IMG/VR virus record: IMGVR_UViG_3300012983_000048 | Strand: one strand, 5' to 3' | DNA length: 64,000 nucleotides | From: a virus | Shown here: positions 4,140 to 64,000 of the stretch, piece by piece | Layout: every line of letters starts with the position of its first letter | How positions within the stretch are numbered: the first letter of the stretch is position 1 | The notes under the pieces: generated by a model | What the model was told of the DNA's origin: nothing | Database searches by the model: none | Seen by the model: only the letters and a program-made list of their open reading frames with translations | Position numbers and translations under genes: made by a program

Positions 4140-7100
4140 ATGAATTTAAGAGATTATGTATTTGCAAGAAAAATCAATGGACAAACAAGATTGTTTTCAT
4201 TTAAACAAAAGTTGAACTCATCAACAGGTGGGTTTAAACATTTTTGTCTTAAAGGTAAATACTTAACCTCATTCATTAGAATCAAAGCAACACCATCAAC
4301 TGCAACTATTTCAATTGTTTCTGATAATTGTATTCAAAAAGGTAATACAATGATAGTTCCAATTGGTAACACTGTATATGTTACTGTTGAAAATGATGAT
4401 TATTTGACACAAGAGTTTGAATTTGTTGCAGGAAAAGAGGATTATTATTTAGATATTGGATTGGATTTATCTGCTGAGTTTGTATTAAGGGTTGATACAA
4501 CAAAGAATGTTTCTAATACAAATGATAATACATTTATTGTTCCATTTACAAGTGGAACATATTCTGAATTATCAGATGATTCAATTAATATAGATTGGGG
4601 TGATGGAAATAATACAACAATTGAAAATGGTGTCTTTACACAAGAAAATTGTTCTCATATATATAGTAATCCTGGTTCTTATGATATTTCTATTACATCA
4701 TCAAGTGATAAAATACCTGCATTATCATTTAATGATAATTATAGTTCAATAAACAATAATAACTTAAAACTTGTGGAAATTAAAAGTCCATTGGTTCCGA
4801 TGATTGGAACTAATGGAGAATTGGAAACAAATTTACCAAATTTGTTTGGTGGTTGTTCTAATTTATCATCTATTGTTGAGGATATTTTTAAATATAATCA
4901 TCAGATTAAAAATATTTCTGGTTGTTTTGAAGGTTGTAATTCATTATTAACAATACCAGAAAATATATTAATATATACACCAAATATTATAAATGTATCA
5001 TATATGTTCAATAATTGTGATGGTATAGAGGAAGTTCCATTTGGTTTATTAACATCAATAACAACTTTAAGAAACTGTGAAAGTATGTTTAATAATTGTG
5101 ATAATTTAAAAATAATACCAAATGGATTATTTTCAACAAATAAAACTATAACAAACTTCACAAAATGTTTTGAAAATTGTAAAAATTTAACAATTAATCC
5201 AAATATATTTGGTGATGATTATACATATCTTTCTGATATAAATGGAATAAACTTCTCAAATATGTTTTATAGAGAACAATTTGATGGAACCGATTGTGGG
5301 TCAGCACCAGAAATATATAAGTTGGATTATAATGAACTTGGTGGTTCTATAAACTGCTTTGGTGGTATTGGTAACGAAGGATTATTAAACTATTGGGATA
5401 TACCACATACTTGGGGTGGTCCAGAAAAAATAGAATTAACAATGGATTTAGAACCAAATGATGTGAATGCCATATTATATGATTATGATTTATTTGAATT
5501 GCCTTATTATAAAGATGAAGGTTGGAATAGAGTTCAAGTAAATACAACACCTAATGATGCTTCGGTAAATGTTGTTCATGCATTAAATGGATATCCAGAT
5601 GAATATCAACAAAATGTTATTTTTAGTAGAAATCCAGGGGTGATTTATAATGGTGTGGCAAGTGGATTTACATCAACAGAATATTTAAAACTGCCACAAA
5701 CAATACCAAATTGTTCTAAAATAGAATTTGGTGGGAAATTTAAATGCAATGCTACATCTGGTGTTAGATGTATTTTTGAATTATCAAAAAATAATTGGAC
5801 TGGGTTTAATATTGCTATTCATGATGATTTATTAAGACTTTGGTGTTCAAGTAGTAGTAGTAAAATTACTCAATTAACAAAAGACAAATATTATTGGTTT
5901 AAATGTGTATGTGATACAAGTGGTAATAAACTATATATATCAACTGATGGGATAAATTATGTTGAAGATGTTGTTCAAACCACAAATGAGTTTTCTTCAT
6001 ATGTTGATTCTATTGTATATATTGGTATAAGAGGATATAATAAAAGTGAAGTATTTACTGATGGACATATAGATTTAAATGAATGTTATATAAAAATAGA
6101 TGACAGTTTGTGGTGGGATTGTCATGATTTAAATTCCAATGTGGTTTCAGCAAATAACACTAAGAAAGAATTTAGTAGTGGATCATATTATATTAATTTA
6201 AGTGGTGGTGAATATGATGTTATAGTTGTTGGTGCCGGTGGTGGTGGTTCTGGTTGTTCTAAACACTCTGATGGTGCAAGTGGTGCATCTGGAGCTGCAT
6301 TTGTAGGTAAAGTAAACATACCAAAAGGCATTTATAAAATAACAGTTGGTGCAGGTGGCACTGGAACTCCTAGAATGGATTGGAGTCGCGGTGGAACGGG
6401 TGGTAGTTCATCAATTGGTGATGTAATAATTGCTGGTGGTGGAACTGGTGGTGCATTGGATGCATCAGGTGGAACTGGTGGAACTTTGACATTAAATACT
6501 CAACCATTATCATATACTGTTAAATCAAATGGTAATAATGGTGCAGGTGGTTATGGTTGGGGACAAACATCTACAGTTGCATCTCCATATGGTTCTTATG
6601 GTTATGGTGGTTATGGTGGTGCTTGTGATTGGCAAGGTGGTGGAACTGGTGGTAATGGATATATAAGTATTTCCGGTTTATTTGAATTAAATTCATTTAC
6701 AGTCGAAAAGATTGGTTTTTGGAACAATGATGGTATAATTAGTGGATTTACAACTTCTAATTATATTAAACATGCATCATCTATTGGAACAATAACATCA
6801 TTTGAACAAGTTATGAAAGTAACAACAACAACAGATATAACAACACGACAAACAATTTGTGCGGGTGATGCATATTTGGGATTGGGATCATTTATGATAA
6901 TTGATGGTAAAATAAAATTATATGCATCATCAGATGGAACGACAAATGATATTGCTGGAACAGATGGAACTTTAAGTACATTAGATGTATTACCAAATAC
7001 TGAATATTATGTAAAATATCATTGGAATGGAACAGATTATAAAATTGATTTATCAACAAATGGTATAGATTATGTCAACTATATATCAATATCAAAAAAC

Positions 7101-9925: not shown

Positions 9926-10558
9926 GTGAAGACTATTATGGTGGATTTTGATGATACAATTGTATCACTTAGTGAAATGTTTTGTGATAGATGGAATCAA
10001 TGGGTTACATTAAACCATGATGATTATTTAGATACAACCTTAAGATTGAGATTGGAAAATATCACACAATATAATTATACAGATAGTATCTATGAATTTT
10101 ATAAGAAAAAAGACACACTTATGGAATATCAATATATTTCATCTATTGTTGACAAATTTATGGATAAAATCTTCTTTGATACAACATTTTATGATAATTC
10201 TTATCTAGCAAATGATTGTAATAAAATATTTGAATTATTAAGAACTGATTTCAAAGATTATTATAAAGTATTGCATACAAAGAATGCTTCAATGAATATG
10301 ATTATATCTAAATCAAATTTTATTAAAAAATGTCAAGAAGAAAAAATAGTTGATTTTTCAATTTTTGATAAGATATTATTTGAATTGGAAATGAATGACA
10401 ATCCAAAAGATACAAATATGTATGATGTTATTATTGATGATTCACCAAAAAACATTGAGTATTTTTTAAACAATAACAAAGATGGTAAAGTTTATATGCC
10501 ACTAAAACCATTTAATAAACATTTGCATAATAGTGATACAAGGATTATAACACTATGA
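9926..10558 (+). CDS. HAD-superfamily hydrolase, possibly 5'(3')-deoxyribonucleotidase-like
   Basis: GTG start 9 nt after GAGGAG. N-terminal HAD motif I MKTIMVDFDDTIV (DxDxT). First gene of the long plus-strand operon. Confidence 0.45.
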   Translation: MKTIMVDFDDTIVSLSEMFCDRWNQWVTLNHDDYLDTTLRLRLENITQYNYTDSIYEFYKKKDTLMEYQYISSIVDKFMDKIFFDTTFYDNSYLANDCNKIFELLRTDFKDYYKVLHTKNASMNMIISKSNFIKKCQEEKIVDFSIFDKILFELEMNDNPKDTNMYDVIIDDSPKNIEYFLNNNKDGKVYMPLKPFNKHLHNSDTRIITL

Positions 10559-10944
10559 TAAAAGATAATGAAACATTGAACCAAAGAAGAAAATTATCAT
10601 ATATGATAAATGTTTGGGATGATGTTTCATTACCATATACAATTGATTATGATAATATAATAAACAATGTTATTAAATTTTTTGAGACAGAATCTGAATT
10701 AGTATATCCTGCTAAATCATATTTTGTAGCAATTGTTTATGCTAAATGTTTGGAAAAATATTTTAGCATACCATTCTATGAGTCATTAGATTATGAGGAT
10801 TTATTATTTGATGACAAATATTTTGTGAAATATTCTAATAATAATGATGTATATGATAAAATTATTGAAAAAATTGGTGATATATGGCAATATAAATCAA
10901 TAGATAAAACAGTTGAATATTTTAAAAAAGAGTTTTTAATATGA
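10555..10944 (+). CDS. hypothetical protein
   Basis: 129-aa ORF overlapping its neighbours by 4 nt on each side (translational coupling). Confidence 0.45.
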   Translation: MIKDNETLNQRRKLSYMINVWDDVSLPYTIDYDNIINNVIKFFETESELVYPAKSYFVAIVYAKCLEKYFSIPFYESLDYEDLLFDDKYFVKYSNNNDVYDKIIEKIGDIWQYKSIDKTVEYFKKEFLI

Positions 10945-33662: not shown

Positions 33663-34121
33663 TTATAAATTTGAAGTTGATTGTAGGTCATTAATTTCCT
33701 CAGGTAATGTATCTTCAATATTGATATATGGATTATCAGCACGAATTTCATCTTTCTTTGCTAACCAAGTGTTTTTAGCTTCAATGGTTCGTTCATCTGT
33801 TTCACCATAACGAGCTAATGCTTCATCATAATCAAGCTTTAAAGGGTCAGCTTGTTCTGTAAATAAAGATTGACGTGTTTGACGGATTTGCTCATTATAA
33901 ACTTCTACTGGAATATAAGTTTTAAGCAGGAACTCCCCTTGATAGTGTTCGTATTCGTCAACTGAGTGTTCCGTATCCTCAATGACTTCATCATAAACTA
34001 AACAAGGAAAATGGTCTTTCGGATTAAATGATATAGTTTTAGATACATTATCATAAGTAACTTCAACTTCTTTCTTTTCGCAAATTGCTATGATTTTATT
34101 GTCTTTAATTGCTTTAAACAT
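33663..34121 (-). CDS. hypothetical protein (possible fibre assembly/chaperone)
   Basis: 152-aa acidic protein directly downstream of the 708-aa fibre gene, 1-nt start/stop overlap. Confidence 0.4.
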   Translation of the reverse strand: MFKAIKDNKIIAICEKKEVEVTYDNVSKTISFNPKDHFPCLVYDEVIEDTEHSVDEYEHYQGEFLLKTYIPVEVYNEQIRQTRQSLFTEQADPLKLDYDEALARYGETDERTIEAKNTWLAKKDEIRADNPYINIEDTLPEEINDLQSTSNL

Positions 34122-36247
34122 TATTCTATTTCTCCTTCTGTGTAAATGAATCTGAAAACCTCAACGGTTGATATTGTTCCATTATATACCAAATACACTT
34201 CATCACCCTTTTTAACACGAACACTTACATCTGTCCCTCTAGAACCTAAAGTTCCCCCATCAGCAATATTGCTTGCACTTCTGTTTCTTAAATAAAAATA
34301 ATTTCCAGATGTTCCAACAAGTCTGGTATAATAATAACCACTTGCTGGTGCTATATAAGTCGCACCGTTAGCCCCTAAAGTCAAATCAATATATCTATTT
34401 GAAGGTGCTCCCAGTCCCGACAACCAAGATGTGTCGTTTCTGTCAACTGCTTGAAAGGTGGTTTTTAGTATGACTGATGTGATTTTGCCAGAATCAAGAG
34501 AAATAGAACCTATACTTATAGCCATACTAGTAAATAAATCTGATTTAAAATTATTTATTTTGATGTCATATCCTTGTGTAACTACACCTTCTGGATATAT
34601 AACAGAAAATGAATAATTTGGTCTGTTTGGACTAAATAGTAATAAACAATCACTTATCGAATAAGAACTGGCAAAAGTTCTAGTAATAACATTTTGAGAT
34701 ACATACTCAATATTTCTCAAAGTTCCGTCTGCATTTCTTCCGTTCGGAATTAAACCTTTAACACCTGGAAGTGCAAAGACTGTTGACCCGATATACCCAA
34801 ATCCATTAAATACTTGGTCTATGGAAGTTATTGTTCCTGAATTTCGTGACACAGAACAGATTGGAAAAGATAAATTTGTATGTGTTTCTGTTGAGTCAGA
34901 ATACCTACTTATAACATTTGTGTCCGTGTTGTAAATAAAACCACTAGTTGGTGCCGTCGTTCCTGATACCGAATAAGACCAAACCTCTGCTACTAATTCA
35001 GTACCACTAGAATTTACACAAATACCAAGTTGTGTGGAAGCTGAGCCATAGTTTCCAATACTCAAATCATTATTGATGTTAATAATATTCCCATTAGCAT
35101 CATATACTTTACTTCCAGCCTTTAAAGTCAATGTTCCATCAACTAATTCCAACTTAATATCCTGTGGAATTTCTGTAATACAATTAGTAATTTGATTTGT
35201 TGTTAAATGGTTTTTTGAAATTTCATCTAATTGTGTTTGAACATTACTTGATATACCAGATAAATGACTCAATTCAGTTGCAGTAACTGAAGATGTTGTT
35301 CCATATCCAGAATCATTAGTTATCAACACTTGATTCGCAGCTTGTCCAGAAACGTTCAGCGAAATGGTTGCTGACGACCATACATTGTCAGACGTTACAA
35401 CTACCCGTGTTGCATACATTCCATTCAATAGATTAATGAATCTAATCACACTCGTTGTTATCTGAACTAACGGAAACAGATACTCACCGAATTTGCAATA
35501 ACAGACCTTACCTGCATTATAAGCCGCTGATATTTCAGAATATGTTGTAGTATTATAAGTAGCTATAAAAACTTCTTTTGCAGAAACATCATTATCAAAA
35601 TCATTATCATCTGTGATATAACATATCCATTCAGGATGTTGATTTTCAATATCCTGTTCTTGATACTCTGATAATGTTCCAACCCAATCATAATTAACAA
35701 TTCCTTTATTTCTTTCAACTACACCATTTACTTGTAAATTATTATCATCATTGTATGAAATTGATGTATTATCAACAGTTGTTTCGGTATAGTTTGACAT
35801 TATAGAATCTATCAAATCCATATTTTGAATTGATAATCCTAATGATTGAATATTAATAGATGTTGGATAATTATCTATATTAGTAACAATACCAATCATT
35901 AATGCTTGAATATTATTTCTATCTGATACTGTTCCATATACATATCCAATATCACCTACTTTGATTCCTTCAACATCAAAATTTGGGTTGTAAGATGTTG
36001 ATACATTTGTGGATGCATATTGTTTCCATTGTTCATATGTCCAATTTCTTGTTCCAACTTTATATGCACCACTTGTTGAAAAGTTTGAAATAGCATTTTG
36101 AACAAACTCTGTATTTGCAATTTGTTTGCTATTATCTCCAACAGTTGCTGTTGGAACAGTTGGTGTTCCTGTAAATGATGTAGAATCTAATAATTTTTCT
36201 ACATCTGGCATTCCTGCTAATAAACTTGAACCATATTTAATTGACAT
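34121..36247 (-). CDS. large tail fibre / baseplate-associated protein
   Basis: 708 aa. N-terminus MSIKYGSSLLAGMPDVEKLL..TGTPTVPTATVGDNSKQIANTEFVQNAI is a fibre attachment-like signature. Long S/T/N-rich beta-rich body. Confidence 0.55.
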   Translation of the reverse strand: MSIKYGSSLLAGMPDVEKLLDSTSFTGTPTVPTATVGDNSKQIANTEFVQNAISNFSTSGAYKVGTRNWTYEQWKQYASTNVSTSYNPNFDVEGIKVGDIGYVYGTVSDRNNIQALMIGIVTNIDNYPTSINIQSLGLSIQNMDLIDSIMSNYTETTVDNTSISYNDDNNLQVNGVVERNKGIVNYDWVGTLSEYQEQDIENQHPEWICYITDDNDFDNDVSAKEVFIATYNTTTYSEISAAYNAGKVCYCKFGEYLFPLVQITTSVIRFINLLNGMYATRVVVTSDNVWSSATISLNVSGQAANQVLITNDSGYGTTSSVTATELSHLSGISSNVQTQLDEISKNHLTTNQITNCITEIPQDIKLELVDGTLTLKAGSKVYDANGNIININNDLSIGNYGSASTQLGICVNSSGTELVAEVWSYSVSGTTAPTSGFIYNTDTNVISRYSDSTETHTNLSFPICSVSRNSGTITSIDQVFNGFGYIGSTVFALPGVKGLIPNGRNADGTLRNIEYVSQNVITRTFASSYSISDCLLLFSPNRPNYSFSVIYPEGVVTQGYDIKINNFKSDLFTSMAISIGSISLDSGKITSVILKTTFQAVDRNDTSWLSGLGAPSNRYIDLTLGANGATYIAPASGYYYTRLVGTSGNYFYLRNRSASNIADGGTLGSRGTDVSVRVKKGDEVYLVYNGTISTVEVFRFIYTEGEIE

Positions 36248-36425
36248 AATTGTTTCCTGTATCTATTATAAAATATTATATAGATATTTATGGGTTTTTA
36301 ATTATGTTATATTTCTTATTTTGTTTCTAACCATTCATCATATTCTAATGGGTTTATTAACCACCAATTTTCTGTATCTGTATAATTTAATAGATATTTT
36401 CTATAAGTAGCAATATTTTCTCTTT

Positions 36426-37331
36426 CTATAAAGACTCACCAGTCTTCACATTTATGTTCATACTTTTCTGAATCGTAGTAGTTGATGCACGAGTTGTTTC
36501 ACCACCACCATTTGTACTCATGTATCTACATTCATAATTGGATTCGGTTGACGATATTACACTTCTTATGGTTGTCCAAGGTGTCAAAATTATAGACTTG
36601 TTCAAAACATAATTCTCTGGAAGATACAATATTTGATAAAGGTCATGACTGCTAGTGAATTTGAAAAATTTAACACCCCCCAACGTTATATAATCACTTT
36701 CAGAAACCTTTGTGTATATAATTTCTCCAATCGAACCATCATATTCACTCGTAGTAATGCATTTAATTGAACCACCATCGTAATTATTGTAAGTTATTTG
36801 AGGAGCTGATAAAAGAAAATATGACAATGCTACCCGTTCACCCCAATCAGATGACTCTGTACCTGTAACATACCCACTAGTGTATTGCCCATTTGATGGG
36901 GTTTCTACATTAAAAACTTGTGCACCAGCTGAATATGATGGGTAATAGGTCACATCAACGAGATATTTAAACGTAAAATACCCATATGTTTCTTTTAAAT
37001 AAACTTGGTTACATGATAACAATTTGACATCTTCCTCCAACACCACATTAAGTGTTGTATTCTTATTTACAACAACTGTTCCACTCTTAGTAATGTAACC
37101 ATCAAGACTTACTTCATAACTAACCTCAGTTCCTTCTAAAATAGTTGCACTATTTGTAACCTTACCATTGATTATAACTTTTGCATTACTTGGTGTTGGA
37201 TTAATTGTGAATATATAAAATATTTCAGCATTCCAAATCAATGATGAACCCTTATATATTTTTGTTATATTAGTTGAACCTTTATATACTTTTGTTATAT
37301 TAGTTGAACCTTTGTATAATTTAAATGCCAT
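36426..37331 (-). CDS. tail protein with PEGA-like beta-sandwich module
   Basis: Tandem N-terminal duplication FKLYKGSTNITKVYKGSTNITKIYKGSS. PEGA-like segment INPTPSNAKVIINGKVTNSATILEGTEVSYEVSLDGYITKSGTVVVNKNTTLNVVLEE. Confidence 0.5.
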   Translation of the reverse strand: MAFKLYKGSTNITKVYKGSTNITKIYKGSSLIWNAEIFYIFTINPTPSNAKVIINGKVTNSATILEGTEVSYEVSLDGYITKSGTVVVNKNTTLNVVLEEDVKLLSCNQVYLKETYGYFTFKYLVDVTYYPSYSAGAQVFNVETPSNGQYTSGYVTGTESSDWGERVALSYFLLSAPQITYNNYDGGSIKCITTSEYDGSIGEIIYTKVSESDYITLGGVKFFKFTSSHDLYQILYLPENYVLNKSIILTPWTTIRSVISSTESNYECRYMSTNGGGETTRASTTTIQKSMNINVKTGESL

Positions 37332-37335
37332 ATTA

Positions 37336-38613
37336 TTACCCCGTTACAAAATAATATGTATTAGAATCAGGATTTGCTGGCAATGCTGATACAACCTGTA
37401 TTGATGATTTATCAAGTTTTAAATTCAAAGCATTTTGAGTTGCAGTTGATATTGGTTTATTAACATCACTTGTATTATCTACATTTCCAAGACCGACTTG
37501 TGCTTTTGTAACACTATGTGGATTGTTTTTATCATCTGTATGTGATGTTAAATCACTTGAATTTGCTTTTGATGAAATAGCAGAATCTATATTTGATTTG
37601 ACAAAAGATGTTGTTGCAATCTCGGTTGAATTACTTGATAACTGTGGATTTGGTGCAGATGTAGTAATTGTTCCATTTTTATCAATAGAAATTGATATTG
37701 AACTAGTTATATCTGTTCCATCATCCTTTAATGCTCTTACATTTATTTGATGTATTGATGTTCCATCTGGTGTATAACTTATAGTCGAAAATCCAATATA
37801 GTTTCCATTTTTATCAACAACTCCTGTTGGATAATATGTTTTTTTATATTGAGGTAATGTAGAAGAATCTAAAGATGTGTCTTTGTTTAAAAATAAATCC
37901 TTATATGTCTCTTTATCTGTTTCTGTTGAAAGAACACCTTTTGGTGAAGTATTGAATGTTTTTGTTCCATTAATTGTTTCATCACCACTTCTATGAACTA
38001 ATGTATTTTCATCAATGTTATCTACCCATAATATTTTTGTTCCATCATTTGATAATATTTTTCCACTATTACCATCTAAATCTGGTATGAAATCATCATC
38101 AGCATCATCTGTAATGTTATAAATCCAATTATCATTAATTGTTGTTAATGATTTGTATTCATCTTTTGAACCAACCCACATTTTAACAACTTTATTTTTA
38201 TTTTGTTCAATGATTGCAACAGTTTGTAATTTATCATTGGAATTAGTTGTAATGGTTGATTCATCTGGTTTTTTGAATGTTTCTGTCCAATATGCTGTTT
38301 CACCATCAGTTGTTAATAATTTATCACTATTACCTTCTTGTGTAGGTAATGATTCGAAATTTTCCAAAGATTTATCAACATAATTTTTTACAGAATTATC
38401 AACATATTTTTTATTTGTTATTTGTAAATCATTTGATTGTTCTGTTAGTTCAGGAACTAATGGCATACCAGAAAAGTTTGGTGAATTTAATGGTGCTTTG
38501 TTTGCCAATTTACTAACCAAATCAGCTTGGTTGTCAATAGCACCCTCAATACTACCCCAAGCAGAATTGTTTGTAGATGATGCTATTAATTCTTTACCTT
38601 TTCTAATTGACAT
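37336..38613 (-). CDS. tail fibre protein
   Basis: MSIRKGKELIASS N-terminus. VHRSGDETINGTKTFNTSPKG. NNPHSVTKAQVGLGNVDNTSDVNKPIS, the classic tail-fibre repeat. Confidence 0.65.
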   Translation of the reverse strand: MSIRKGKELIASSTNNSAWGSIEGAIDNQADLVSKLANKAPLNSPNFSGMPLVPELTEQSNDLQITNKKYVDNSVKNYVDKSLENFESLPTQEGNSDKLLTTDGETAYWTETFKKPDESTITTNSNDKLQTVAIIEQNKNKVVKMWVGSKDEYKSLTTINDNWIYNITDDADDDFIPDLDGNSGKILSNDGTKILWVDNIDENTLVHRSGDETINGTKTFNTSPKGVLSTETDKETYKDLFLNKDTSLDSSTLPQYKKTYYPTGVVDKNGNYIGFSTISYTPDGTSIHQINVRALKDDGTDITSSISISIDKNGTITTSAPNPQLSSNSTEIATTSFVKSNIDSAISSKANSSDLTSHTDDKNNPHSVTKAQVGLGNVDNTSDVNKPISTATQNALNLKLDKSSIQVVSALPANPDSNTYYFVTG

Positions 38614-38623
38614 TTATTTCCCC

Positions 38624-39235
38624 TTATCCATATAAAAATTCACCAACATTAGTACTGTTATAATTCATTGTTCCATTTACTATATCATACATACAAGGTC
38701 TATTTTGATTAGTTAAAATTGGAACATAATGTCTAACCAAATTATTATTTACCCAAAATTTTGCACCAAAAATTTTTAATTTTCCTGTATATCCACTACC
38801 ACTTGTTGCAAATAATCCAAATTCTACATCACTTGTTGATGAACCTGTTCTTATAATTGTTTTATCATTGACAGTCAATGTTGCATCAGCATCTCTTCTT
38901 TCAAAAATTACAGTATGTCTATCAGTTGCTAAAACTCCATCAATATATTGACCACCACCAAGTTCAAATTTATCATTTGCATCTTTACCAAAATATTGTG
39001 CTTGTGTTAATGATTGACCTATTAAATTTCTTGATGTAGATGAATCAAATTGTAAATCAATTTCTGCTTTATATTTTCCATTAATACCTGTTAAAATGTT
39101 TTGATTACCATCGCTATACAAATAATTCAGAACAGTATGTGTCAATACCAATGTTGATTTTTTATCATTGGTTTTTATTGTGTATTTCTTTTTAACACCA
39201 TTTGATATAGATACTAATATATTTTTTAAGCTCAT
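38624..39235 (-). CDS. tail fibre-associated protein
   Basis: 203-aa ORF with MSLKNIL N-terminus, between two fibre genes with 10-14 nt spacers. Confidence 0.45.
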   Translation of the reverse strand: MSLKNILVSISNGVKKKYTIKTNDKKSTLVLTHTVLNYLYSDGNQNILTGINGKYKAEIDLQFDSSTSRNLIGQSLTQAQYFGKDANDKFELGGGQYIDGVLATDRHTVIFERRDADATLTVNDKTIIRTGSSTSDVEFGLFATSGSGYTGKLKIFGAKFWVNNNLVRHYVPILTNQNRPCMYDIVNGTMNYNSTNVGEFLYG

Positions 39236-39249
39236 GTGTAATAAAATCC

Positions 39250-40815
39250 TTACCAGTATTTAATAGTAGCAGTTGTTTGTAATCCATTTACCCATTTTTG
39301 ACTTGTTTCATCATATATTAATGTCTGCCCGGATTTTGCATCTGTAATATTTGTGTCATCCATTTCAGCAATATTACAAATATCTCTAACAATTGACCAA
39401 ATGAGTGATGCACCATTATTTGATAAAAACTTTTTGTTATCATTGTTTGTAATCTGAATTGTATTTTGTTTTTTTGATAAACCGGACTGAACAAATGCAG
39501 TTGATGCAGCTTTTGTTGAATTATCTGTATCACTAACAGTAGGAACATTTGGACTTGAAGTAAATGTTTTTGTTCCACCAACTGTTTCATCACCACTTCT
39601 ATGAACAACATTTGTTGATAATGTTGGATCATTTACCCAACCTTGTGATGCAGCAATTGTTGATGTAGTATTATTGGTTGTTTCACCAAGTGGAACAGTT
39701 ACATATGCCTTGTTTTCTGCCTTATCATAAACAACATCAACAGATGCAACCTCAATAGCATTGTCATCAGCAATAGATAAAGAAATATAATTACTTGCAT
39801 CAGATGAAGAACTTGTAATTGATGAAATAGATACACCATCAGAATTTTGAATGTCTAATATTTCACCATCATTTTGAGATATAATTGTTTGGGTGAAAGT
39901 TTTTGTTCCTGTAATTGTTTCATTGTTATCAATATTTACAAATCTATCATCTGCTTCTTCTTTGGTATATGATGCAGAGTCAGAACCAATATATTCAAAT
40001 GCTTTTGTTGTTGCATTCCAACGATAATATGATTGACGACCTTGATGATTTTCATCTGCCAATACTTTGATGATATCATTATCAGATATATATTGATTAT
40101 TATAATTTTCTAATTCAGCAGCAGAACCAACAATATCAACAACGTCTTTTCTTGCATTAATAGCATCAATTTGTTCTTGTAAGTGTGAATCTTCTGAAAC
40201 TCTTTGGTCATGTTCACTATTAATTGCTGAAACCAAATTTGTTTTTGTTAAATCTTGATTTAAGTCTGTTAATTTACCTTCAACACTAATTGCTCTGTCA
40301 GATTCTACTTTTAAATTTGTAGCAATTTGTTTAGGGGTTGCTATAATCTGTTTATCGGTTGGTGTTGATAAATCATTTACAGATTTTATTAACACTTCAC
40401 TATCTGAAGCATATCTTGATACACCATATGAATCATGGTTGATATCAAAATCTGTATCAGATGTTGATTCTTTAATATTTGTATTATCTGCTTTTTTTAT
40501 AGAAATTTTGAAATCATTTGAATTTATTTCTGTTTCTGTTTCTGTAATAATTGGTGTGTCAAAAGAATATGTTTTAACATAATCCCAACATTCAACACCA
40601 TTTTTTATATGTCTATAAAAGACTCTACCAAATGGTTCTGTTCCAATTCTTGTATCGGTTTCATCTAAAATTTCTAATTTTGTTTGAATATATATATCAC
40701 CAACTTTACCAATATCTAATGTTGGTTCAAAATCTCCATAAAATATTGTAATACCATCATTACCAATAGTAAAATATTTGTTTAATGTACCTGCTAAATC
40801 ATAAATTGATGCCAT
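39250..40815 (-). CDS. tail fibre protein
   Basis: 521 aa. VHRSGDETVGGTKTFTSSPNVPTVSDTDNSTKAASTAFVQSGL is nearly identical in motif to the C-terminus of ORF 3003. Coiled-coil segment LQEQIDAINARKDV. Confidence 0.65.
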   Translation of the reverse strand: MASIYDLAGTLNKYFTIGNDGITIFYGDFEPTLDIGKVGDIYIQTKLEILDETDTRIGTEPFGRVFYRHIKNGVECWDYVKTYSFDTPIITETETEINSNDFKISIKKADNTNIKESTSDTDFDINHDSYGVSRYASDSEVLIKSVNDLSTPTDKQIIATPKQIATNLKVESDRAISVEGKLTDLNQDLTKTNLVSAINSEHDQRVSEDSHLQEQIDAINARKDVVDIVGSAAELENYNNQYISDNDIIKVLADENHQGRQSYYRWNATTKAFEYIGSDSASYTKEEADDRFVNIDNNETITGTKTFTQTIISQNDGEILDIQNSDGVSISSITSSSSDASNYISLSIADDNAIEVASVDVVYDKAENKAYVTVPLGETTNNTTSTIAASQGWVNDPTLSTNVVHRSGDETVGGTKTFTSSPNVPTVSDTDNSTKAASTAFVQSGLSKKQNTIQITNNDNKKFLSNNGASLIWSIVRDICNIAEMDDTNITDAKSGQTLIYDETSQKWVNGLQTTATIKYW

Positions 40816-46537: not shown

Positions 46538-48544
46538 ATGACAGAACAAATTATTATTGATATTTTAAAAAAAGCATCTGATTGCTATTATAATACAGCA
46601 GACTATTATTGTATGTCAGAAGATGAAGTAAATTGCATTGTGCAAAATTTGCACATTCCTTGCCAAAATGATGTAACAGATGCTATGTATGATGAAATCT
46701 ATTCAAGAGCAAAAGCATTATATTCGACCAATCCTTTTTTCCTTTCTGTTGGGTCGGAAGTTCGTGGGGATAAGGTAAAATTACCTATCCCCCTCGGAAG
46801 TATGGTTGAAGTAAAACTTGGAGAAATACAAAATTGGTTAAATCCAGGACATTATTGTATTTCTGATAAATTAGATGGTATATCTTGTTTATTAGCATAT
46901 GAAAATGGTAAATTGAAAATTGCATATACTCGTGGCAATGGGTTTGAAGGACAAGATATTACAAGACATATCTTGAAAATGACTTATTGCCCAAAAGAGT
47001 TAACTGAAAGTTTTACTGGATATATACGTGGTGAAATTATTATTCCAAAGGATAATATTCAAAAATGCATTGGCGAATTGAGGGAAGAAATTGGTAAAGA
47101 ATATAAAAATGGCAGAAATCTTTGTGCAGGTCAATTAAATGCAAAAGAATGTGCAGATTCTTTTGTCAAATGTGTTCATTTTGTTGCATATTATATTGAT
47201 GGATGGAAAGAAGAAACACATAAGATGTTTGATAAATTAACATTATTGGGGTTTGAAAGTGCCAAATATAGAATCTCAAATAACTTGTTTATTACTGATG
47301 AATATTTGACAAAAATTTTACAAAATGTAAAACTAAATGGTGATTATGAATGTGATGGTATTATTATTACACAAGATGTGATTGATGAGGAACACCAAGG
47401 ATTTGAAACATCTTCATTAAATCCAAAAGCATCAAGAAAATTTAAAATTAGTGGATTGGATGAAACTTTTGTTTCAACAATTGAAAACATTACATGGCAA
47501 ATTTCAAAAGATTTCTTATTGAAACCAGTAATTAATATTACACCAACAGACCATAATGGTGTAACAATATCAAATATTAGTGGGAATAATTATAAATTTC
47601 TTATTGATAATGATTTGAGAATTGGTACTGTCATTAAGGGGAAAAGGTCTGGTGATGTTATTCCACAATATGTTGAGACAATTGAAAAATCTACTAGGAA
47701 AGAAGACCCATATAACTTAAACCAATTTGGTATTGAAATAGGTAGAGATGGTGTTGAGTTAGTATTTTTAGGAACAGAAGATACAAACCCAGAATTATGT
47801 GTTGAAGCATATACTCAAAAGACTCTATATTTTTGTAATAAGTTGGGTGTTGAATTTGGTGGATATGGTAACATTAAGAAACTAATGGAAGAAACTAGAG
47901 ATTATAGATTTCCATATCAACACTTATGTACATTACCTAAAGAAGTGTTTGAATCTGCAATTGGTGTTAATGGTGTTAAGTTTTATAATTCTTTACATGA
48001 AAAACTTATCAGAGCAACCCCTTGCCAATTATGTGATGCTTGTGGAGTATTTGGTAGAGGTATTGGTGAATTGAAACTTCAAAAAATTGTTGATAATTAT
48101 GATGAATTACCAAATGATTATACAAAAGTAATTACTACAGATGGTTGGGCAGAAAAAACAACAGAACAATATATTAGTAATTATCTTAATTATATTGATA
48201 TGGTTGAATTTTTTCAAAGAAATAATATGTGGAAAGGATTTGAAACAATTAAGACATCAACAAAATATTCAAATGTAAAGGTGGTATTTACTGGTGTTAG
48301 AAATGCTGAGTTAGAACAAAGTATTAGAATTAATGGTGGAAAAGTATTGACATCATTTACAAAAGAGTGTAATTTAGTTATTGCAAAAGACCCAATGTCA
48401 TCATCCGGTAAATTAAAGAAAGCAAGAGAAAATGGTGTAGAAATTATTTCATTGGTTGATGCACTAAACAGGTTTGAAAAAGTGGAGAAAGAAGTTGTTC
48501 CATTAGAAAAATTGGATAATCCATTAGCAAAAGTATTACGGTAA
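46538..48544 (+). CDS. ligA: NAD-dependent DNA ligase (LigA-like)
   Basis: Adenylation motif ISDKLDGISC (KxDG). Cys cluster PCQLCDACG. C-terminal BRCT-like VFTGVRNAELEQSIRINGGKVLTSFTKECNLVIAKDP..GKLKKARENGVEII. Confidence 0.75.
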   Translation: MTEQIIIDILKKASDCYYNTADYYCMSEDEVNCIVQNLHIPCQNDVTDAMYDEIYSRAKALYSTNPFFLSVGSEVRGDKVKLPIPLGSMVEVKLGEIQNWLNPGHYCISDKLDGISCLLAYENGKLKIAYTRGNGFEGQDITRHILKMTYCPKELTESFTGYIRGEIIIPKDNIQKCIGELREEIGKEYKNGRNLCAGQLNAKECADSFVKCVHFVAYYIDGWKEETHKMFDKLTLLGFESAKYRISNNLFITDEYLTKILQNVKLNGDYECDGIIITQDVIDEEHQGFETSSLNPKASRKFKISGLDETFVSTIENITWQISKDFLLKPVINITPTDHNGVTISNISGNNYKFLIDNDLRIGTVIKGKRSGDVIPQYVETIEKSTRKEDPYNLNQFGIEIGRDGVELVFLGTEDTNPELCVEAYTQKTLYFCNKLGVEFGGYGNIKKLMEETRDYRFPYQHLCTLPKEVFESAIGVNGVKFYNSLHEKLIRATPCQLCDACGVFGRGIGELKLQKIVDNYDELPNDYTKVITTDGWAEKTTEQYISNYLNYIDMVEFFQRNNMWKGFETIKTSTKYSNVKVVFTGVRNAELEQSIRINGGKVLTSFTKECNLVIAKDPMSSSGKLKKARENGVEIISLVDALNRFEKVEKEVVPLEKLDNPLAKVLR

Positions 48545-51225: not shown

Positions 51226-53337
51226 ATGAAACTTGAATTTATAGAATTGAAATTAAAAAACTTTTTATCATTTGGTAATGTTGAGCAAGTAATTAAGTTA
51301 AATACTAATCCATATACTATTATCACAGGATTTAACAAAGATATTTCTAATGATGATAGTGGTAATAAAAATGGGGTAGGTAAATCCACAATATTCAATG
51401 CTTTGCACTATGCATTGTTTGGGAGAGCAATTGGTAATAAAGTTACATTACCAAATTTAGTTAATAACATTAATAAAAAACATATGGAAGTTTCATTAAC
51501 TTTCAAAAAGAATGATGTATTGTATACAATTGAAAGAGGTAGAAGCCCAAACTATTTAAGATTCTATAAGGATGAAGAAGAAATCACTGATGAATCATTG
51601 GGTGATTCAAGAGATACACAGTCTGTTATTGAAGAAATAATTGGAATGAATGAAGAATTGTTTAACCAAACAGTTATGTTATCTTGTGGTGTTCCAATTT
51701 TTATGAATCAATCAACATCAAATCAAAAACTTATCATTGAAAAAGTTTTGGGGGTTGATGTTATTACAGATAAAATTAATAAATTGAAAGAAGTTATTAA
51801 AGAAACAAAGAATAACATTAATAATGAAGAATTTAAAATAACTACATTAAAAAATCAACAAGAAACTCTTAAAAATGATTATGAAAATCAAATTACAAAA
51901 TATAAACAACAAAAGAAATTGTGGTATGATATACAAGAAACTGAAATTAAATCCATTAAAGAACAAATAGATAAATTGAAATCTATTGATTATGATAAAG
52001 AATTAAGATTGATTAATGAAACAAAAGATTATTTGGACAATCTTTCTAAATGGCAAAATAATGAAAAAACTAAACAGGGTTTGATTTCATCTATCAACAG
52101 AGAACAACAAATGTTGGAAAATATTAATAAGCAAATTAATGCCATTGATTCTATTGATTTTGATAAAGAATTGGAAATTATTAATTATAATGAAGATTTG
52201 AAGAAGAAAGAAGAAGAATATAAAAATCAACTTTTAGTTAAACAGCAATTAAAGAATAGATACAATGAATTGTCTAATGGTTATATTACATTGGGTAATG
52301 AGAAGAAAAAGGTTCAAGAAAAGATTGAAAAATATCAAAGTAATTTATGTCCTACATGTGGTCAGGTATTAGATAAAGAAAAAGCAGAACAAGAAGTTAA
52401 TAAATTGACAATTGAAATGCAACATTATGATTCTGCTATGCACCAAGTAGATATTGAAATATTGGAAACAAATGCTAAATTATCTGATTGTGTTGAAGAT
52501 GGAAAGATGTTTGATTATCAACAAGGAAGATATAGTAATATTGAATTATTGAACATTGATAAAAATAAATCATCAGAATTAAATGCATCTAAATTGGAAA
52601 TTGTTGGTAGAATCAATGAATTAAATACTGAATTGCGTGCATATGATATGGAAAAACCAACTGAACCATCTGAATATTCACAATTTATGACTATTAATGA
52701 ATATTATGAATCAAAGTCATCAATGGATGGGTTGAATAATGAGTTGAACACTGTTAAAACACAAATAGAACCATATAGTAAGTTAATTAGTGAATTGGAA
52801 TCAAAGTTGAAATCTATTGAACCAATTGATGAGTCATTATTGAAGGATATGTTAAATGAACAAGAGCATAATAATGTATTATTAAAGTTATTAAATGCAC
52901 CAAACTCTTATATCAGACAATCAATTTTGGATAAATCCTTGTCATATTTAAACACAAAGATTAAACAATATTTAGAACAACTTGGTTCAACAATTTCTGT
53001 TAAATTTAATTCAGATATGACAATTGATATGAGAAGAAGAGGGTTGGATTTAGGATATGTATCCAGTGGTGAAGAAGGAAGAATTGCAATTGCCTTGACA
53101 TTGGCATTTAGAGATACTTGGGAAAGTTTATCTGGAATTGAATGTAATTTATTAATGGTTGATGAACTATTAGATAAAATTGGATTGGATGTTAATGGTA
53201 AGCAAATGATGGTTAAATGTTTGAGGCATATACCAAATAGAAACATATTCTTGGTATCACATGATGTTGAGATAAACACACAGGGGAATAAAATATTAAC
53301 AATTGTAAAAGAAAAAAATTTTAGTAATGTAGAATAA
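51226..53337 (+). CDS. SbcC/Rad50-like recombination ATPase (T4 gp46-like)
   Basis: Walker A GNKNGVGKSTIFNAL. Long coiled coil with a central zinc-hook NLCPTCGQ. ABC signature SSGEEGRIAIALTLAF. Walker B LLMVDELLD. Confidence 0.75.
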   Translation: MKLEFIELKLKNFLSFGNVEQVIKLNTNPYTIITGFNKDISNDDSGNKNGVGKSTIFNALHYALFGRAIGNKVTLPNLVNNINKKHMEVSLTFKKNDVLYTIERGRSPNYLRFYKDEEEITDESLGDSRDTQSVIEEIIGMNEELFNQTVMLSCGVPIFMNQSTSNQKLIIEKVLGVDVITDKINKLKEVIKETKNNINNEEFKITTLKNQQETLKNDYENQITKYKQQKKLWYDIQETEIKSIKEQIDKLKSIDYDKELRLINETKDYLDNLSKWQNNEKTKQGLISSINREQQMLENINKQINAIDSIDFDKELEIINYNEDLKKKEEEYKNQLLVKQQLKNRYNELSNGYITLGNEKKKVQEKIEKYQSNLCPTCGQVLDKEKAEQEVNKLTIEMQHYDSAMHQVDIEILETNAKLSDCVEDGKMFDYQQGRYSNIELLNIDKNKSSELNASKLEIVGRINELNTELRAYDMEKPTEPSEYSQFMTINEYYESKSSMDGLNNELNTVKTQIEPYSKLISELESKLKSIEPIDESLLKDMLNEQEHNNVLLKLLNAPNSYIRQSILDKSLSYLNTKIKQYLEQLGSTISVKFNSDMTIDMRRRGLDLGYVSSGEEGRIAIALTLAFRDTWESLSGIECNLLMVDELLDKIGLDVNGKQMMVKCLRHIPNRNIFLVSHDVEINTQGNKILTIVKEKNFSNVE

Positions 53338-58302: not shown

Positions 58303-58605
58303 ATGAATAAAATTAATATATTTTTAGATGATTGCAGAATTACTCCACAAGGTTTTAATAGAACATATACTGTTGAAGAAACAATTAGTATGTTAAAACA
58401 TTTTGAAGGAAGAGTTGGCATATTGTCATTGGATAATGATTTAGGTGATGGATTATTAGAAGGACAAGAGGTTGCAAAATGGATTGAAGAAGAACATTTT
58501 GTTAATGGTTATCAACTTCCCTTAAAGATAATTCCACACACAATGAATCCGGTTGCAAGAAAAAATATGCAAACTATTATTGACATATTGTATAGAAAGG
58601 GTTAA
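58303..58605 (+). CDS. hypothetical protein
   Basis: 100-aa ORF following the consensus promoter. Confidence 0.4.
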   Translation: MNKINIFLDDCRITPQGFNRTYTVEETISMLKHFEGRVGILSLDNDLGDGLLEGQEVAKWIEEEHFVNGYQLPLKIIPHTMNPVARKNMQTIIDILYRKG

Positions 58606-60126: not shown

Positions 60127-60648
60127 ATGAATTTGTTTATTTTGTCTCAATATAAATTAATACAAGAATTATATAAAGATGATACATTTTTAGATACTTT
60201 AATCAATGTTGATGATTTTTTTGATATACTAAATCTGTATGTTTATCCAAATTGGTTAGATTGTGAAGTAGTTGAAGTTAAATTTCTCAAATATTTTACA
60301 TCTATTAAATTAAAATCACCATATAATAAAATGCCACATCCAAGGGGGGCAGTATTATTGACAAAATATGATTGTCAGGTAAAATATAAAGAAACACATG
60401 AATATGTTGTAAAAGAAGTTAATAATATTAATGACACATATGTTGATGAAAAATCAGGTGAAAGGAAACCAAAAGTAGAAAAGAAGAAAGTTTGGATTGT
60501 TGACATATTAATACCAAATAAACACATTATCAATGATGAAATTTATGATTTAGATGGTGCACAAGAAAAAATCCATGATGAACAAGAAATTGAAGAAGAT
60601 ATGGAGAATGCTATCACCAATAATTCTGAAGGAGAAATGAATGCCTAA
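60127..60648 (+). CDS. hypothetical protein
   Basis: 173 aa with an acidic C-terminus. Confidence 0.45.
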   Translation: MNLFILSQYKLIQELYKDDTFLDTLINVDDFFDILNLYVYPNWLDCEVVEVKFLKYFTSIKLKSPYNKMPHPRGAVLLTKYDCQVKYKETHEYVVKEVNNINDTYVDEKSGERKPKVEKKKVWIVDILIPNKHIINDEIYDLDGAQEKIHDEQEIEEDMENAITNNSEGEMNA

Positions 60649-61570
60649 TATGGTTAATGATATGAAATATAATATTGGTGATATAGTATATATACCATCA
60701 AAACATATAGATGGGGAAATTGTTGACATTGTAAATACAAATCAGTATAGAATATCAACAAAAAATGGATTAATATTATCACCAGAATCAATGATTGAAT
60801 TAGTTAGTAATGAATACAAAGAAATAAATGAATCAACAGTATATGAGGGCAAATTAATGAAATATGCAAAAGATTTTTTTAAAAAAATGAAATTAAGAAA
60901 AAATTTAAATGAATCATTAAGGCAATCAGATTTAGAATATCTTGTATCACCATATGTTTCTATTGATCAATATACATCAAAATTATCAGAAGATAATATA
61001 ACAATTGCATTTTTTTGTAATGAAAGAGATGTTGCCAAAGATTTATCAGATTTTTTGGAAAAAATGTATGTTATGGAAATAAGAGACATTGAAGTATCTG
61101 AATCATTGACTGAAGATAACAAATACATTTTATATGTTGAATTTGATAGAAATCAACAGTTTCCAAAGATATTGGTAGATATATTGGATTCTATTAATTT
61201 TTTGATTAATAAAGATATTGATGATTGGGATTTTAAATCATTTAATATGGAAGAAAAACAGAAAGTAAGTGTTGACAAAATCAGACAATATGTAAGATTA
61301 TCACCAATAGTTGATAGTGATAATAATAAAAATGATAAGGTAGAAGAAACAGTTGAGTATAAGTTGAATAATATATCTCGCAAATATTTAGATGAGGGTT
61401 ATATGTCATTGGATGATTTTGATAAAGTATTAGAAACATCAGACATAGATATGGGTTTATCATTAGATAAAGATGTATTGGAATATAATTTTCCAAATTC
61501 AACTATTATTATGACAGAAACACATGCATATATAGTTAATGATGATGTCAAAAAACTAAGGATGTTATAA
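60641..61570 (+). CDS. hypothetical protein
   Basis: 309 aa overlapping its neighbours by 8 nt and 1 nt. Confidence 0.45.
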   Translation: MPNMVNDMKYNIGDIVYIPSKHIDGEIVDIVNTNQYRISTKNGLILSPESMIELVSNEYKEINESTVYEGKLMKYAKDFFKKMKLRKNLNESLRQSDLEYLVSPYVSIDQYTSKLSEDNITIAFFCNERDVAKDLSDFLEKMYVMEIRDIEVSESLTEDNKYILYVEFDRNQQFPKILVDILDSINFLINKDIDDWDFKSFNMEEKQKVSVDKIRQYVRLSPIVDSDNNKNDKVEETVEYKLNNISRKYLDEGYMSLDDFDKVLETSDIDMGLSLDKDVLEYNFPNSTIIMTETHAYIVNDDVKKLRML

Positions 61571-61977
61571 TGACATTAACTTTATTGAGGAAATTTTTAC
61601 CATGGATTTTAATAATACTATTGGGTGTTGTAATTTATGGTGGATTTAGATATTATGCTAATAAGGTTGAGGAATTAACAATTTCTAATACAACCTTACA
61701 AACACAATTATCACAAGTTAATACAAATTATTCTACCCTGCAAAATATGTATAGTATTAGTATAAAACAATATGAGGAATTGCAAAAGAGTCAAAAAGAA
61801 TCCTTAGAATATGTTTCAGAATTAAAACAGAAACTTACAGAGTTGAATTTTAGAGAAGAATATGGTAAAGATAAAGAAGCATTATTAATAAACATAAATG
61901 ATTATGAGAAATGTTATTCAAAAAATGTGATAAAAGACCCATCATACAAATGTTATGGAGAAAAGAATGTCAAGTAA
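61570..61977 (+). CDS. membrane-anchored coiled-coil protein
   Basis: N-terminal TM FLPWILIILLGVVIYGGF then heptad-rich LQTQLSQVNTNYSTLQNMYS..ELQKSQKESLEYVSELKQKLTEL. Confidence 0.4.
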   Translation: MTLTLLRKFLPWILIILLGVVIYGGFRYYANKVEELTISNTTLQTQLSQVNTNYSTLQNMYSISIKQYEELQKSQKESLEYVSELKQKLTELNFREEYGKDKEALLININDYEKCYSKNVIKDPSYKCYGEKNVK

Positions 61978-64000
61978 AACATTATATATTATCAGGGGTG
62001 TTCCTGGTTCAGGTAAATCAACATTAGCACATCAATTAACAAAAAATGTTGTTGAAACAGATGATTTTATGATGGTTGATGGTGAGTATAAGTATGATAA
62101 AGATAAAGTATATGCTTGTCATAAGAAATGTTATAATAAAGTATTGGATTATATGGCACATGGTGTTACACCAATTGCTGTTGCTAATACATTTATTAAA
62201 AAGAAAGATTATAAACCATACGTTGATTTAGCAAAAGAATTTGAATATAATGTTGAAATAAAAGTTTGTAAGGGTGATTATAAAAATGTTCATAATGTTC
62301 CACAGGACAGAGTTGAACAGATGAAAAGTAAGTTTCAAGAAAGCATTAATTCAATTTTGGAAATGAATGGTGATGTTGGAATTACTGAAACAATAGAAAA
62401 TAAAAAACAATTAAATATTAATGATAATTTTAAGAAATGGTTTGGAAATTCAAAAAGTATCAATGAATCTTTTGTAAAAAATCCATTTACTAATGAAGTT
62501 GAATGTTATTATTCTAAATCAGAATCAGAAGTTAAACAAATTGTTAAAAATTTATTTAAAGATATACCGGTTAGAATATTATATGATTTTAAAAATGAAG
62601 TATATATTTTTGGAAATGCTAATGATAAAATTCATATACAATTATTAGAAATAATGAATTCCTATGGTAAATTTAGATATCCATCATCAGAAGAAAAAAT
62701 GTATGAATATATGGACAAATATTGTGCTATGTTTAAAATCATTAATACAAATGATTATAAATCATATTCTCGTTCAGATGGGTACAAAATGGGTATTATT
62801 GGTAAATTAGATACTGATATGTATGTAATTTTAAGAGATAATACACTTGCTATTGAACGTTCAAGTATTACTGGTAAATTTGTTCCCGATGAATTGGTTA
62901 AATGTAAAAAAGTTCCTATGTTACAAAATGTTAAATTTGTTAATTATGATATTAGAGGAACAATATTAAAGAGTAAAGAACAATTGCCACAAAATTTGGT
63001 TAATGAATCATTTGAACCAAAATTAAATGATAACTTTTGGAAATGGTTTGGTAATAGTAAATGTGTAGATAAAAATGGCAATCCAAAAGTCTTTATACAC
63101 CGTTCAAATGCCAAGTTTAATGCATTTGATAAATCTAAAATTGGTCAAAGAGATTATGGTTGGTATGGTAAGGGATTCTATTTTGGTTCTGCAAAACAAA
63201 AAGATTATAAATTATATGGAAAACATGTTTATAAATGTTTTTTAAGAATTGAAAATCCATTTTATTATAATGAGTTTTTTAGAAGTTATACACCAGATGA
63301 TTATCAAAAAATTGTTGGATATAATAAACTTGGTATATTAACACCACAAGAATCAGACTTTCTTAAAAAATATATGGTTGCATATAACCATTTTGATTTT
63401 AATGTGAAATTAAAGAAAGTTCCACAAAAAGTAAAAGGTTATAATGGAAAAGTATATGATTCATTTTATTGGGTTGCTCAATATAATGGTAAAACTACTA
63501 AAACAGACCCAGATAAAAATCCAGATTATAATACAGAGGATTATGCTAAAGAGATGTTTTGGAGAGAACATTATGGGAAACATATTGAAAAGATAAAAGA
63601 AATAAATCGTGAATGTTATAAAACTCGTATGGATAAGATGTCCAATAGTATTAGAAATATGGGTTATGATGGTATTATTAATGCTGATGAGTATGTTGTA
63701 TTTGAACCAACACAAATTAAGTCTGTTAAAAACAATGGTAATTGGTCATTAGAAGTAGATAATATTAATGAGGAAAAAGAAGTTATTGAAGAAAGACTTT
63801 TCCCAGAAATATCTGATAGAAAATATAATGAATTATTATGGTTTACATCACCAAATATGACAGCAAATGCTTATACCAAATTCTTTGGTAAAGAAATGAT
63901 TGCTGATAGAATCCCAGCAAAATATTTAGTTACACTTTCATCTAATGATATTTCTTTAAAAGACTTGGTTGAAAAACATAGAAAATTATATAATGCTAAA
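61967..64000 (+). CDS. P-loop kinase (AAA_33/PNK-like) fused to PARP-like ADP-ribosyltransferase-fold domain(s); 3'-partial (open to window end)
   Basis: Manual translation in frame 2 from ATG 61967 has no stop through 64000 (at least 678 aa); it is absent from the ORF track because it has no stop. N-terminus MSSKTLYIIRGVPGSGKSTLAHQL (Walker A). Downstream FIHRSNAKFNAFDKSKIGQRDYGWYGKGFYFGSAKQ resembles the PARP catalytic H-G-S ... GKGIYFA..SKS region. Internal duplication NDNFKKWFGNSKSI / NDNFWKWFGNSKCV. Confidence 0.55.
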   Translation, partial: MSSKTLYIIRGVPGSGKSTLAHQLTKNVVETDDFMMVDGEYKYDKDKVYACHKKCYNKVLDYMAHGVTPIAVANTFIKKKDYKPYVDLAKEFEYNVEIKVCKGDYKNVHNVPQDRVEQMKSKFQESINSILEMNGDVGITETIENKKQLNINDNFKKWFGNSKSINESFVKNPFTNEVECYYSKSESEVKQIVKNLFKDIPVRILYDFKNEVYIFGNANDKIHIQLLEIMNSYGKFRYPSSEEKMYEYMDKYCAMFKIINTNDYKSYSRSDGYKMGIIGKLDTDMYVILRDNTLAIERSSITGKFVPDELVKCKKVPMLQNVKFVNYDIRGTILKSKEQLPQNLVNESFEPKLNDNFWKWFGNSKCVDKNGNPKVFIHRSNAKFNAFDKSKIGQRDYGWYGKGFYFGSAKQKDYKLYGKHVYKCFLRIENPFYYNEFFRSYTPDDYQKIVGYNKLGILTPQESDFLKKYMVAYNHFDFNVKLKKVPQKVKGYNGKVYDSFYWVAQYNGKTTKTDPDKNPDYNTEDYAKEMFWREHYGKHIEKIKEINRECYKTRMDKMSNSIRNMGYDGIINADEYVVFEPTQIKSVKNNGNWSLEVDNINEEKEVIEERLFPEISDRKYNELLWFTSPNMTANAYTKFFGKEMIADRIPAKYLVTLSSNDISLKDLVEKHRKLYNAK

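Follow-up and report, generated by a model that had tools for sequence, protein, structure and literature searches.

Results

Gene and full-length protein

The DNA under study is a stretch of 64,000 nucleotides (nt) from a virus (IMG/VR record IMGVR_UViG_3300012983_000048), referred to throughout as the window. At its end, an open reading frame (ORF) on the plus strand starts at position 61967 and extends to the last base, 64000. The predicted order of modules in the encoded protein is a P-loop kinase of the polynucleotide kinase (Pnk) type, an orphan lead-in motif, a module designated module X, an ADP-ribosyltransferase (ART) module of the ART-PolyVal family, and ~690 residues of unrecognised modules. 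An initial annotation, made from the sequence alone, had described the ORF as a kinase fused to PARP-like ART motifs with an internal duplication, and had pointed out that it runs off the window without a stop.

The latter was confirmed by translation, which gave 678 sense codons and no stop in the frame 61967-64000 (+). At the G+C content of the window (~25%), about 1 in 11 random codons (~9%) is a stop, and the probability of a stop-free run of this size was estimated from composition as ~1e-27. Since the low G+C content makes stops frequent, the 678-codon frame represents a real gene. Direct reading revealed a ribosome-binding site (61957..61969, +, including the start codon), in which GGAG at 61957-61960 is separated by a 6-nt spacer from the ATG at 61967. 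This ATG overlaps the stop of the upstream same-strand ORF (61570-61977) by 11 nt, and the same overlap of start and stop is present in the related contigs L001 and L003.

The complete protein surfaced in a profile search made with module X. This protein, P0094, comprises 1286 amino acids (aa), and over all 678 residues encoded in the window its identity is 100%. Its locus, L003, is a metagenomic contig of 102,810 bp (ENA ERZ27246346, k141_330651). Of the final 12,034 bases in the window, 12,033 are the same in this contig. There, a stop closes the gene after codon 1286, and neither a hidden stop nor a frameshift was revealed by the downstream sequence that the initial annotation had wished for. 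The window hence holds the N-terminal 53% of the protein, and 608 residues lie beyond its end. The exact protein is already present in public metagenome catalogues, without annotation. Counts of motifs, linkers, and module positions given below refer to a set of 88 relatives.

Kinase module

Residues 1-135 (61967..62371, +) were assigned to the P-loop kinases of the T4 Pnk type by Pfam, PHROG, and profile searches against the PDB. The P-loop GVPGSGKST, already recognized in the initial annotation, is located at aa 11-19 (61997-62023, +). Pfam AAA_33 was matched by aa 6-118 (E 2.2e-8), and the N-terminus matched PHROG 2071 (ATPase, E 3e-33) as well as PHROG 505 (polynucleotide kinase, E 2.3e-11). 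When a profile of nine kinase domains from relatives (A3) was run against the PDB, the top match was the kinase domain of T4 Pnk (1ly1/1ltq, E 2.7e-8), followed by L-seryl-tRNA(Sec) kinase (PSTK) and the kinase domain of Clostridium thermocellum Pnkp. On this sequence evidence, the N-terminus is a P-loop kinase of the Pnk type.

Besides the P-loop, the module shares with T4 Pnk an invariant aspartate, D32, which aligns with T4 Pnk D35. We take D35 to be the general base of the T4 enzyme, and D32 is a candidate for this role. K106 is found at the position of the T4 Pnk lid residue R126, and the substrate-binding R38 falls into an unaligned insert. Unlike T4 Pnk, the protein has no C-terminal HAD phosphatase; no HAD, metallophosphoesterase, or other phosphatase domain was found in all 1286 aa. 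A further difference is that T4 Pnk is a free repair enzyme, whereas the kinase described here sits inside a multidomain protein.

Repeated motif and module X

The initial annotation had read two copies of a motif with the consensus NDNF[KW]KWFGNSK, the second followed by FIHRS and GKGFYF, and both are indeed present in the translation. The first copy, NDNFKKWFGNSKS, covers aa 152-164 (62420-62458, +), and the second, NDNFWKWFGNSKC, covers aa 354-366 (63026-63064, +) and forms the lead-in helix of the ART module. The copies are 73% identical over 55 nt of DNA. In a BLASTP comparison of one half of the protein with the other, 18 residues aligned (11/18 identical, E 3e-5) and nothing more. At the level of sequence, the repeat is one of the motif only, and no domain is duplicated.

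The role of the motif became apparent from the relatives, among which [WFY]FG.S occurs 64 times. Nearly all of these occurrences run directly into ..G.P.(hydrophobic)2-YHG[ST], the first ART strand, and in the structure model the motif folds into a short helix at the N-terminus of the ART module. The motif serves ART-PolyVal modules as their usual N-terminal lead-in. The first copy in the window is followed by SINESFVKNP... and module X, of ~190 residues, with no ART body behind it.

How this arrangement arose is indicated by a blastn comparison with the DNA of the closest complete relative (P0001, 1144 aa, contig L001). Window and L001 are collinear at 60902-62455 (83% identity) and again at 63003-64000 (92%), with no similarity between window positions 62456-63002, which encode module X, and L001 positions 10490-10937. 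The latter segment encodes a canonical short ART (VVYHGS...GQGFYFTS...GYDGIILYDEYIVF). On the left, similarity stops with the final base of the WFGNSK codons, and on the right it resumes where the NESFEPK linker begins. This makes the first copy an orphan lead-in at a cassette junction, the ART body having been exchanged for module X. In two other relatives, P0002 and P0004, the kinase is joined straight to the second ART via hybrid motifs. In the first of these, KKQSNINDNFKKWFGNSK runs into CVDKNGNP (core, NINDNFKKWFGNSK into CVDKNGNP); in the second, KKQSNINDNF runs into WKWFGNSKCVDENGNP (core, NINDNF into WKWFGNSKCVDENGNP). Such hybrids are the product expected from recombination between two motif copies. 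The motif would thus also serve as a junction where recombination exchanges or deletes modules.

Module X (aa 164-345; 62456..63001, +) is an alpha/beta module with INESF and VNESF linkers at its ends. It matched no Pfam or PHROG family, and no relative was found in the PDB by a single-sequence search. Among predicted viral structures, the only significant match was a homologue named 'PolyVal ADP-Ribosyltransferase [Myoviridae sp. ctWb16]'. Module X occurs in 28 of the relatives, in N-terminal, central, and other positions. Of 1.84 billion cluster representatives, an exhaustive profile search retrieved only 45. Nearly all of these are long multidomain proteins, and those scanned carry ART-PolyVal and/or AAA_33. 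In alignment A1, six polar residues of the module are invariant (R204, D208, H224, D272, R291, and K313, numbered as in the whole protein), which is compatible with a binding or catalytic site.

The presence of the 13-residue motif in two copies had led to the proposal that the first is the remnant of an ART, degenerate and without catalytic activity, with a regulatory effect on the second. We give this next to no credence. The similarity breaks off after the 18 residues mentioned, hhalign assigned a probability of 0.35% to a profile-profile alignment of module X with the ART, and no ART was among the fold matches of module X. The module is moreover autonomous, since some of its N-terminal occurrences have no motif before them. 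Finally, the clean replacement relative to L001 marks the first copy as an orphan, neither a degenerate catalytic nor a regulatory ART.

As a separate observation, the relative P0008 (450 aa) contains, from aa 385 on, a second WFGNSKCVDK followed by an apparently frameshifted ART reading (MVIQKFLYTVQ...). This points to misassembly of the P0008 contig or to pseudogenisation of the module.

ART-PolyVal module

The ART-PolyVal module spans aa 346-598 (63002..63760, +) and begins with the linker NESFEPK and the lead-in helix. The match to Pfam ART-PolyVal (PF18760) covers aa 368-591 and model positions 1-137 of 140, and its score of 55.7 bits (E 1.2e-14) exceeds the gathering cutoff of 31.2 bits. 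FIHRS was located at aa 376-380 and YGWYGKGFYFGSAKQ at aa 397-411, which leaves a gap of 16 residues; the 21 residues reported initially are obtained if one counts to KGFYF. The C-terminal signature of the module reads FEPTQIKSVKNNGNWS.

Three key residues emerged from an alignment of 25 ART modules from relatives (A2). H378 (63098-63100, +) and D568 of GYDG (63668-63670, +) are conserved in 25/25 modules, and Y405 (63179-63181, +) is a tyrosine in 18/25 and aromatic in 24/25. In the structure model, H378 and Y405 lie in predicted strands and D568 immediately before a strand. For the ARTs of polyvalent proteins, a histidine in strand 1, a tyrosine in strand 2, and an aspartate in strand 5 have been described (PMC5512222). 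The putative active site H378/Y405/D568 matches this H-Y-D configuration. A catalytic glutamate had been expected downstream of GKGFYF; the invariant acid turned out to be D568, and the nearby E575 (in DEYVVF) is a glutamate in 14 of the 25 modules.

D568 follows 162 residues past Y405 because of a 131-residue insert (aa 434-564; 63266..63658, +) between a conserved ENP motif and GYDG. The insert is predicted to consist of helices, a three-stranded sheet, and a long helical hairpin. Most relatives align at ART-query positions 1-90 and 210-257 only, and A2 has a gap region of variable length at the insert site. Possibly, the insert is a target-recognition subdomain.

The predicted model shows a PARP-like ADP-ribosyltransferase fold, with matches to PARP1 (6.2), ParT (5.9), RES toxins, diphtheria toxin (5.0), and AcrIF11 (4.5), and also to MbcT, an NAD+ phosphorylase. 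By sequence, neither single-sequence nor profile searches found a solved relative in the PDB, and no Pfam match to the PARP family was obtained at E<=1. Tpt1/KptA, DarT, and Alt/ModA were neither matched by profile nor closest in fold, and the R-S-E triad of Alt/ModA was not found. Unlike the PARPs (PARP15, PARP4, tankyrase, PARP1) and the ARTs of the diphtheria toxin type, the module belongs to the Pfam family ART-PolyVal. It also differs from PARPs in its conserved acid, which is the aspartate of GYDG where PARPs have a glutamate, and in lacking a PARP regulatory or helical domain. A grouping with the Tox-ART-HYD2 clade, related to PARPs and diphtheria toxin, has been described for the ARTs of polyvalent proteins (PMC5512222).

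Linkers and C-terminal part

The window ends within a region (aa 599-678; 63761..64000, +) that contains the linker DNINEE and the first part of a further module that was not recognised, and is common to the relatives P0001, P0002, P0003, and P0010. For the C-terminal 686 aa, no significant match to Pfam or PHROG was found, and NCBIfam gave a P-loop fragment only. Over half of the protein is made up of modules without an assigned family. A candidate second ART picked out by eye in this part (SLYHGC...GNSLTRS...QYEEFVVG, aa ~985-1130; L003 12900-13480) was rejected, as hhalign gave 0.48% and no Pfam family was matched.

The module boundaries carry the pattern [ILV]-x-E-[SA], represented by SINES, LVNES, and NINEE and, further on, by NIKES. 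In the relatives, N[ILVM]xE[SATEG] occurs 88 times, compared to ~14 times in shuffled sequence. The T4 prohead protease cleaves at the consensus L/I-x-E, and the linker pattern resembles this consensus.

Genomic setting

Directly upstream, in the same-strand block, lie two genes for virion structural proteins at 60127-60648 (+; PHROG 12928) and 60641-61570 (+; PHROG 13138), and a short coiled-coil ORF separates them from the gene described here. Homologues of the second structural gene were found only in jumbo phages of 340-490 kb (such as Agrobacterium phage Atu_ph07 and SPN3US-like Salmonella phages). This suggests that the window stems from a large phage, although its contig measures 102.8 kb; relatives of the modular protein are found on contigs of up to 341 kb. 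The window also codes for an NAD-dependent DNA ligase (46538-48544), an SbcC-like protein (51226-53337), tail-fibre proteins, a DNA methyltransferase, and Hsp20, which identifies it as phage DNA. The source is probably a large, AT-rich tailed phage. The structural neighbours lend weak support to expression of the gene late, together with structural proteins.

A gene for a cREC_REC protein (PF20274, 100 aa) is located at 58303-58605 (+; L003 6337-6639), 3.4 kb upstream of the kinase. In a survey of jumbo phages, cREC_REC was proposed to be a 2',3'-cyclic phosphoesterase tied to RNA ligases in phage RNA repair (PMC7824862). This bears on the suggestion, made initially from the fusion itself, of a Tpt1/PNK-like repair enzyme. 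In such a coupled pathway, the kinase would heal 5'-OH ends and the ART would remove the 2'-phosphate with NAD+, like Tpt1/KptA, on cleaved tRNA. A Pnk-type kinase would suit this role, as would the cREC_REC gene; in addition, the relative P0072 has the same kinase fused to an RNA_lig_T4_1 domain, and stand-alone kinase homologues in isolated phages adjoin RNA ligase genes. We nevertheless regard coupled repair as quite improbable, because kinase and ART shuffle independently among the relatives (many contain the kinase and no ART, many others an ART and no kinase), because the unrelated module X stands between the two here, and because the ART is not of the Tpt1 type. Nor did the 64-kb window or the fetched flanks yield an RNA ligase; tblastn with the ligase-bearing P0072 retrieved the kinase part only in the window, L001, and L003. 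As kinase and ART occur independently, their fusion is one shuffled arrangement among many and no evidence of a coupled pathway of the Pnk-Tpt1 type.

Elsewhere in the window, ~25 back-to-back same-strand ORFs of 190-380 aa were found at 10941-32868 (+). Pfam Radical_SAM and/or Fer4_12 were matched by seven of ten sampled ORFs, which have CxxxCxxC close to their N-terminus, and all-vs-all BLASTP revealed several paralogue groups with 23-59% identity. It is unusual for a phage to carry some twenty radical-SAM enzymes in a tandem array. The array is bordered on either side by genes of the tail-fibre type, with PHROG matches to tail-fibre or tail-fibre-assembly proteins: one for a 1462-aa protein at 4140-8528 (+) and three at 34121-40815 (-).

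Discussion

With a probability of about 70%, we consider the ORF to be the N-terminal part of a 1286-residue modular polyvalent effector of a phage, with independent modules on short linkers and a host-directed function. Polyvalent proteins of phages and conjugative elements, including those with ART-PolyVal, were described by Iyer, Burroughs, Anand, de Souza, and Aravind in 2017 (PMC5512222). Like these, the protein is a large multidomain phage protein that joins at least two unrelated enzymatic modules, its ART has the H/Y/D residues, and its relatives are extensively mosaic. They contain one to five ART-PolyVal modules, the kinase is N-terminal or in the middle of the protein, some carry a GNAT domain, and the position of module X varies. 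One relative in UniProt is already called 'PolyVal ADP-Ribosyltransferase'. The host-modifying role that the initial annotation had contemplated is the one predicted for the family (PMC5512222).

The protein is a member of this described class and not a new system. Particular to it are the Pnk-type kinase module, the insert in the ART, the orphan lead-in that records a cassette swap, and the many modules without a family. The kinases reported for polyvalent proteins are truncated Ser/Thr/Tyr-type or zeta-toxin-like enzymes, unlike the Pnk-type AAA_33 module found here, and the terms 'polynucleotide kinase' and 'PNK' are not used in PMC5512222. In further contrast to the described proteins, no metallopeptidase, MuF, RNA polymerase, helicase, or methylase module is present, more than half of the protein has no family, and the ART contains 131 additional residues.

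By analogy with the family, the protein would be made late and would reach the host together with the DNA, or would act early in infection (PMC5512222, PMC9503650). The ART would mono-ADP-ribosylate a host macromolecule using NAD+. The kinase would phosphorylate 5'-OH polynucleotide ends, for example, of RNA cut by host anticodon nucleases. The modules would act independently, with no coupled pathway. T4 Alt provides the functional precedent, as an ART that is delivered with the DNA and modifies host RNA polymerase and other proteins (PMC5512222). Alt is a single enzyme of the R-S-E clade with a cleaved capsid-targeting peptide, whereas the present protein is multidomain, has an H-Y-D ART, and carries no such peptide.

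Several points weigh against a packaged, host-directed effector. Packaging and injection are steps that we infer from family precedent and from the two structural neighbours. The P-loop of the kinase is located right at the N-terminus, which leaves no room for a capsid-targeting peptide of the T4 type, and searches of the protein brought up no MuF, portal, or peptidase domain. Its kinase comes without the Pnk phosphatase domain, and no RNA ligase accompanies it in the window or the fetched flanks. Our search of the literature and the PDB returned no experiment on any ART-PolyVal or on this kinase clade.

With the same architecture, the protein might instead remain unpackaged and act inside the infected cell after its expression, like T4 ModA/ModB, or its ART might be an NADase or NAD+ phosphorylase. 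The former would agree with the lack of any recognizable head-targeting, MuF, portal, or peptidase domain, and the latter with the appearance of MbcT and the RES/ParT toxins beside PARPs among the fold matches. We judge this alternative to be unlikely, given that the gene follows two virion-structural-protein genes in a tight same-strand block, that the ART-PolyVal modules of isolated phages are found in crAss-like RNA polymerase-associated virion polyproteins, and that the family is defined by predicted delivery with DNA (PMC5512222).

A more speculative idea concerns the lead-ins and linkers, which might together form a diversification-and-release system. Lead-ins and linkers would provide microhomology for the exchange of cassettes, and cleavage of the linkers by a T4-type prohead protease would release separate enzymes. 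We think it rather unlikely that this is so. If it were true, new effector combinations would arise through the exchange of cassettes from phage to phage, much like in polymorphic toxins, and one gene would fill the capsid with a cocktail of separate enzymes. The injected Pnk-type kinase would then pre-empt tRNA-cleaving defences of the host, and module X would be a new enzyme.

The practical outcome of this study is an annotation of the protein as a polyvalent effector in which a Pnk-like kinase and an ART-PolyVal are combined with several unassigned modules. It also illustrates that a short conserved lead-in can pass for a domain duplication when read by eye. The clean module boundaries mean that single domains could be expressed and tested, and the protein family offers natural variants with one ART, with two ARTs, or without module X. 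ART-PolyVal is among the commonest predicted host-modifying enzymes of phage effector proteins.

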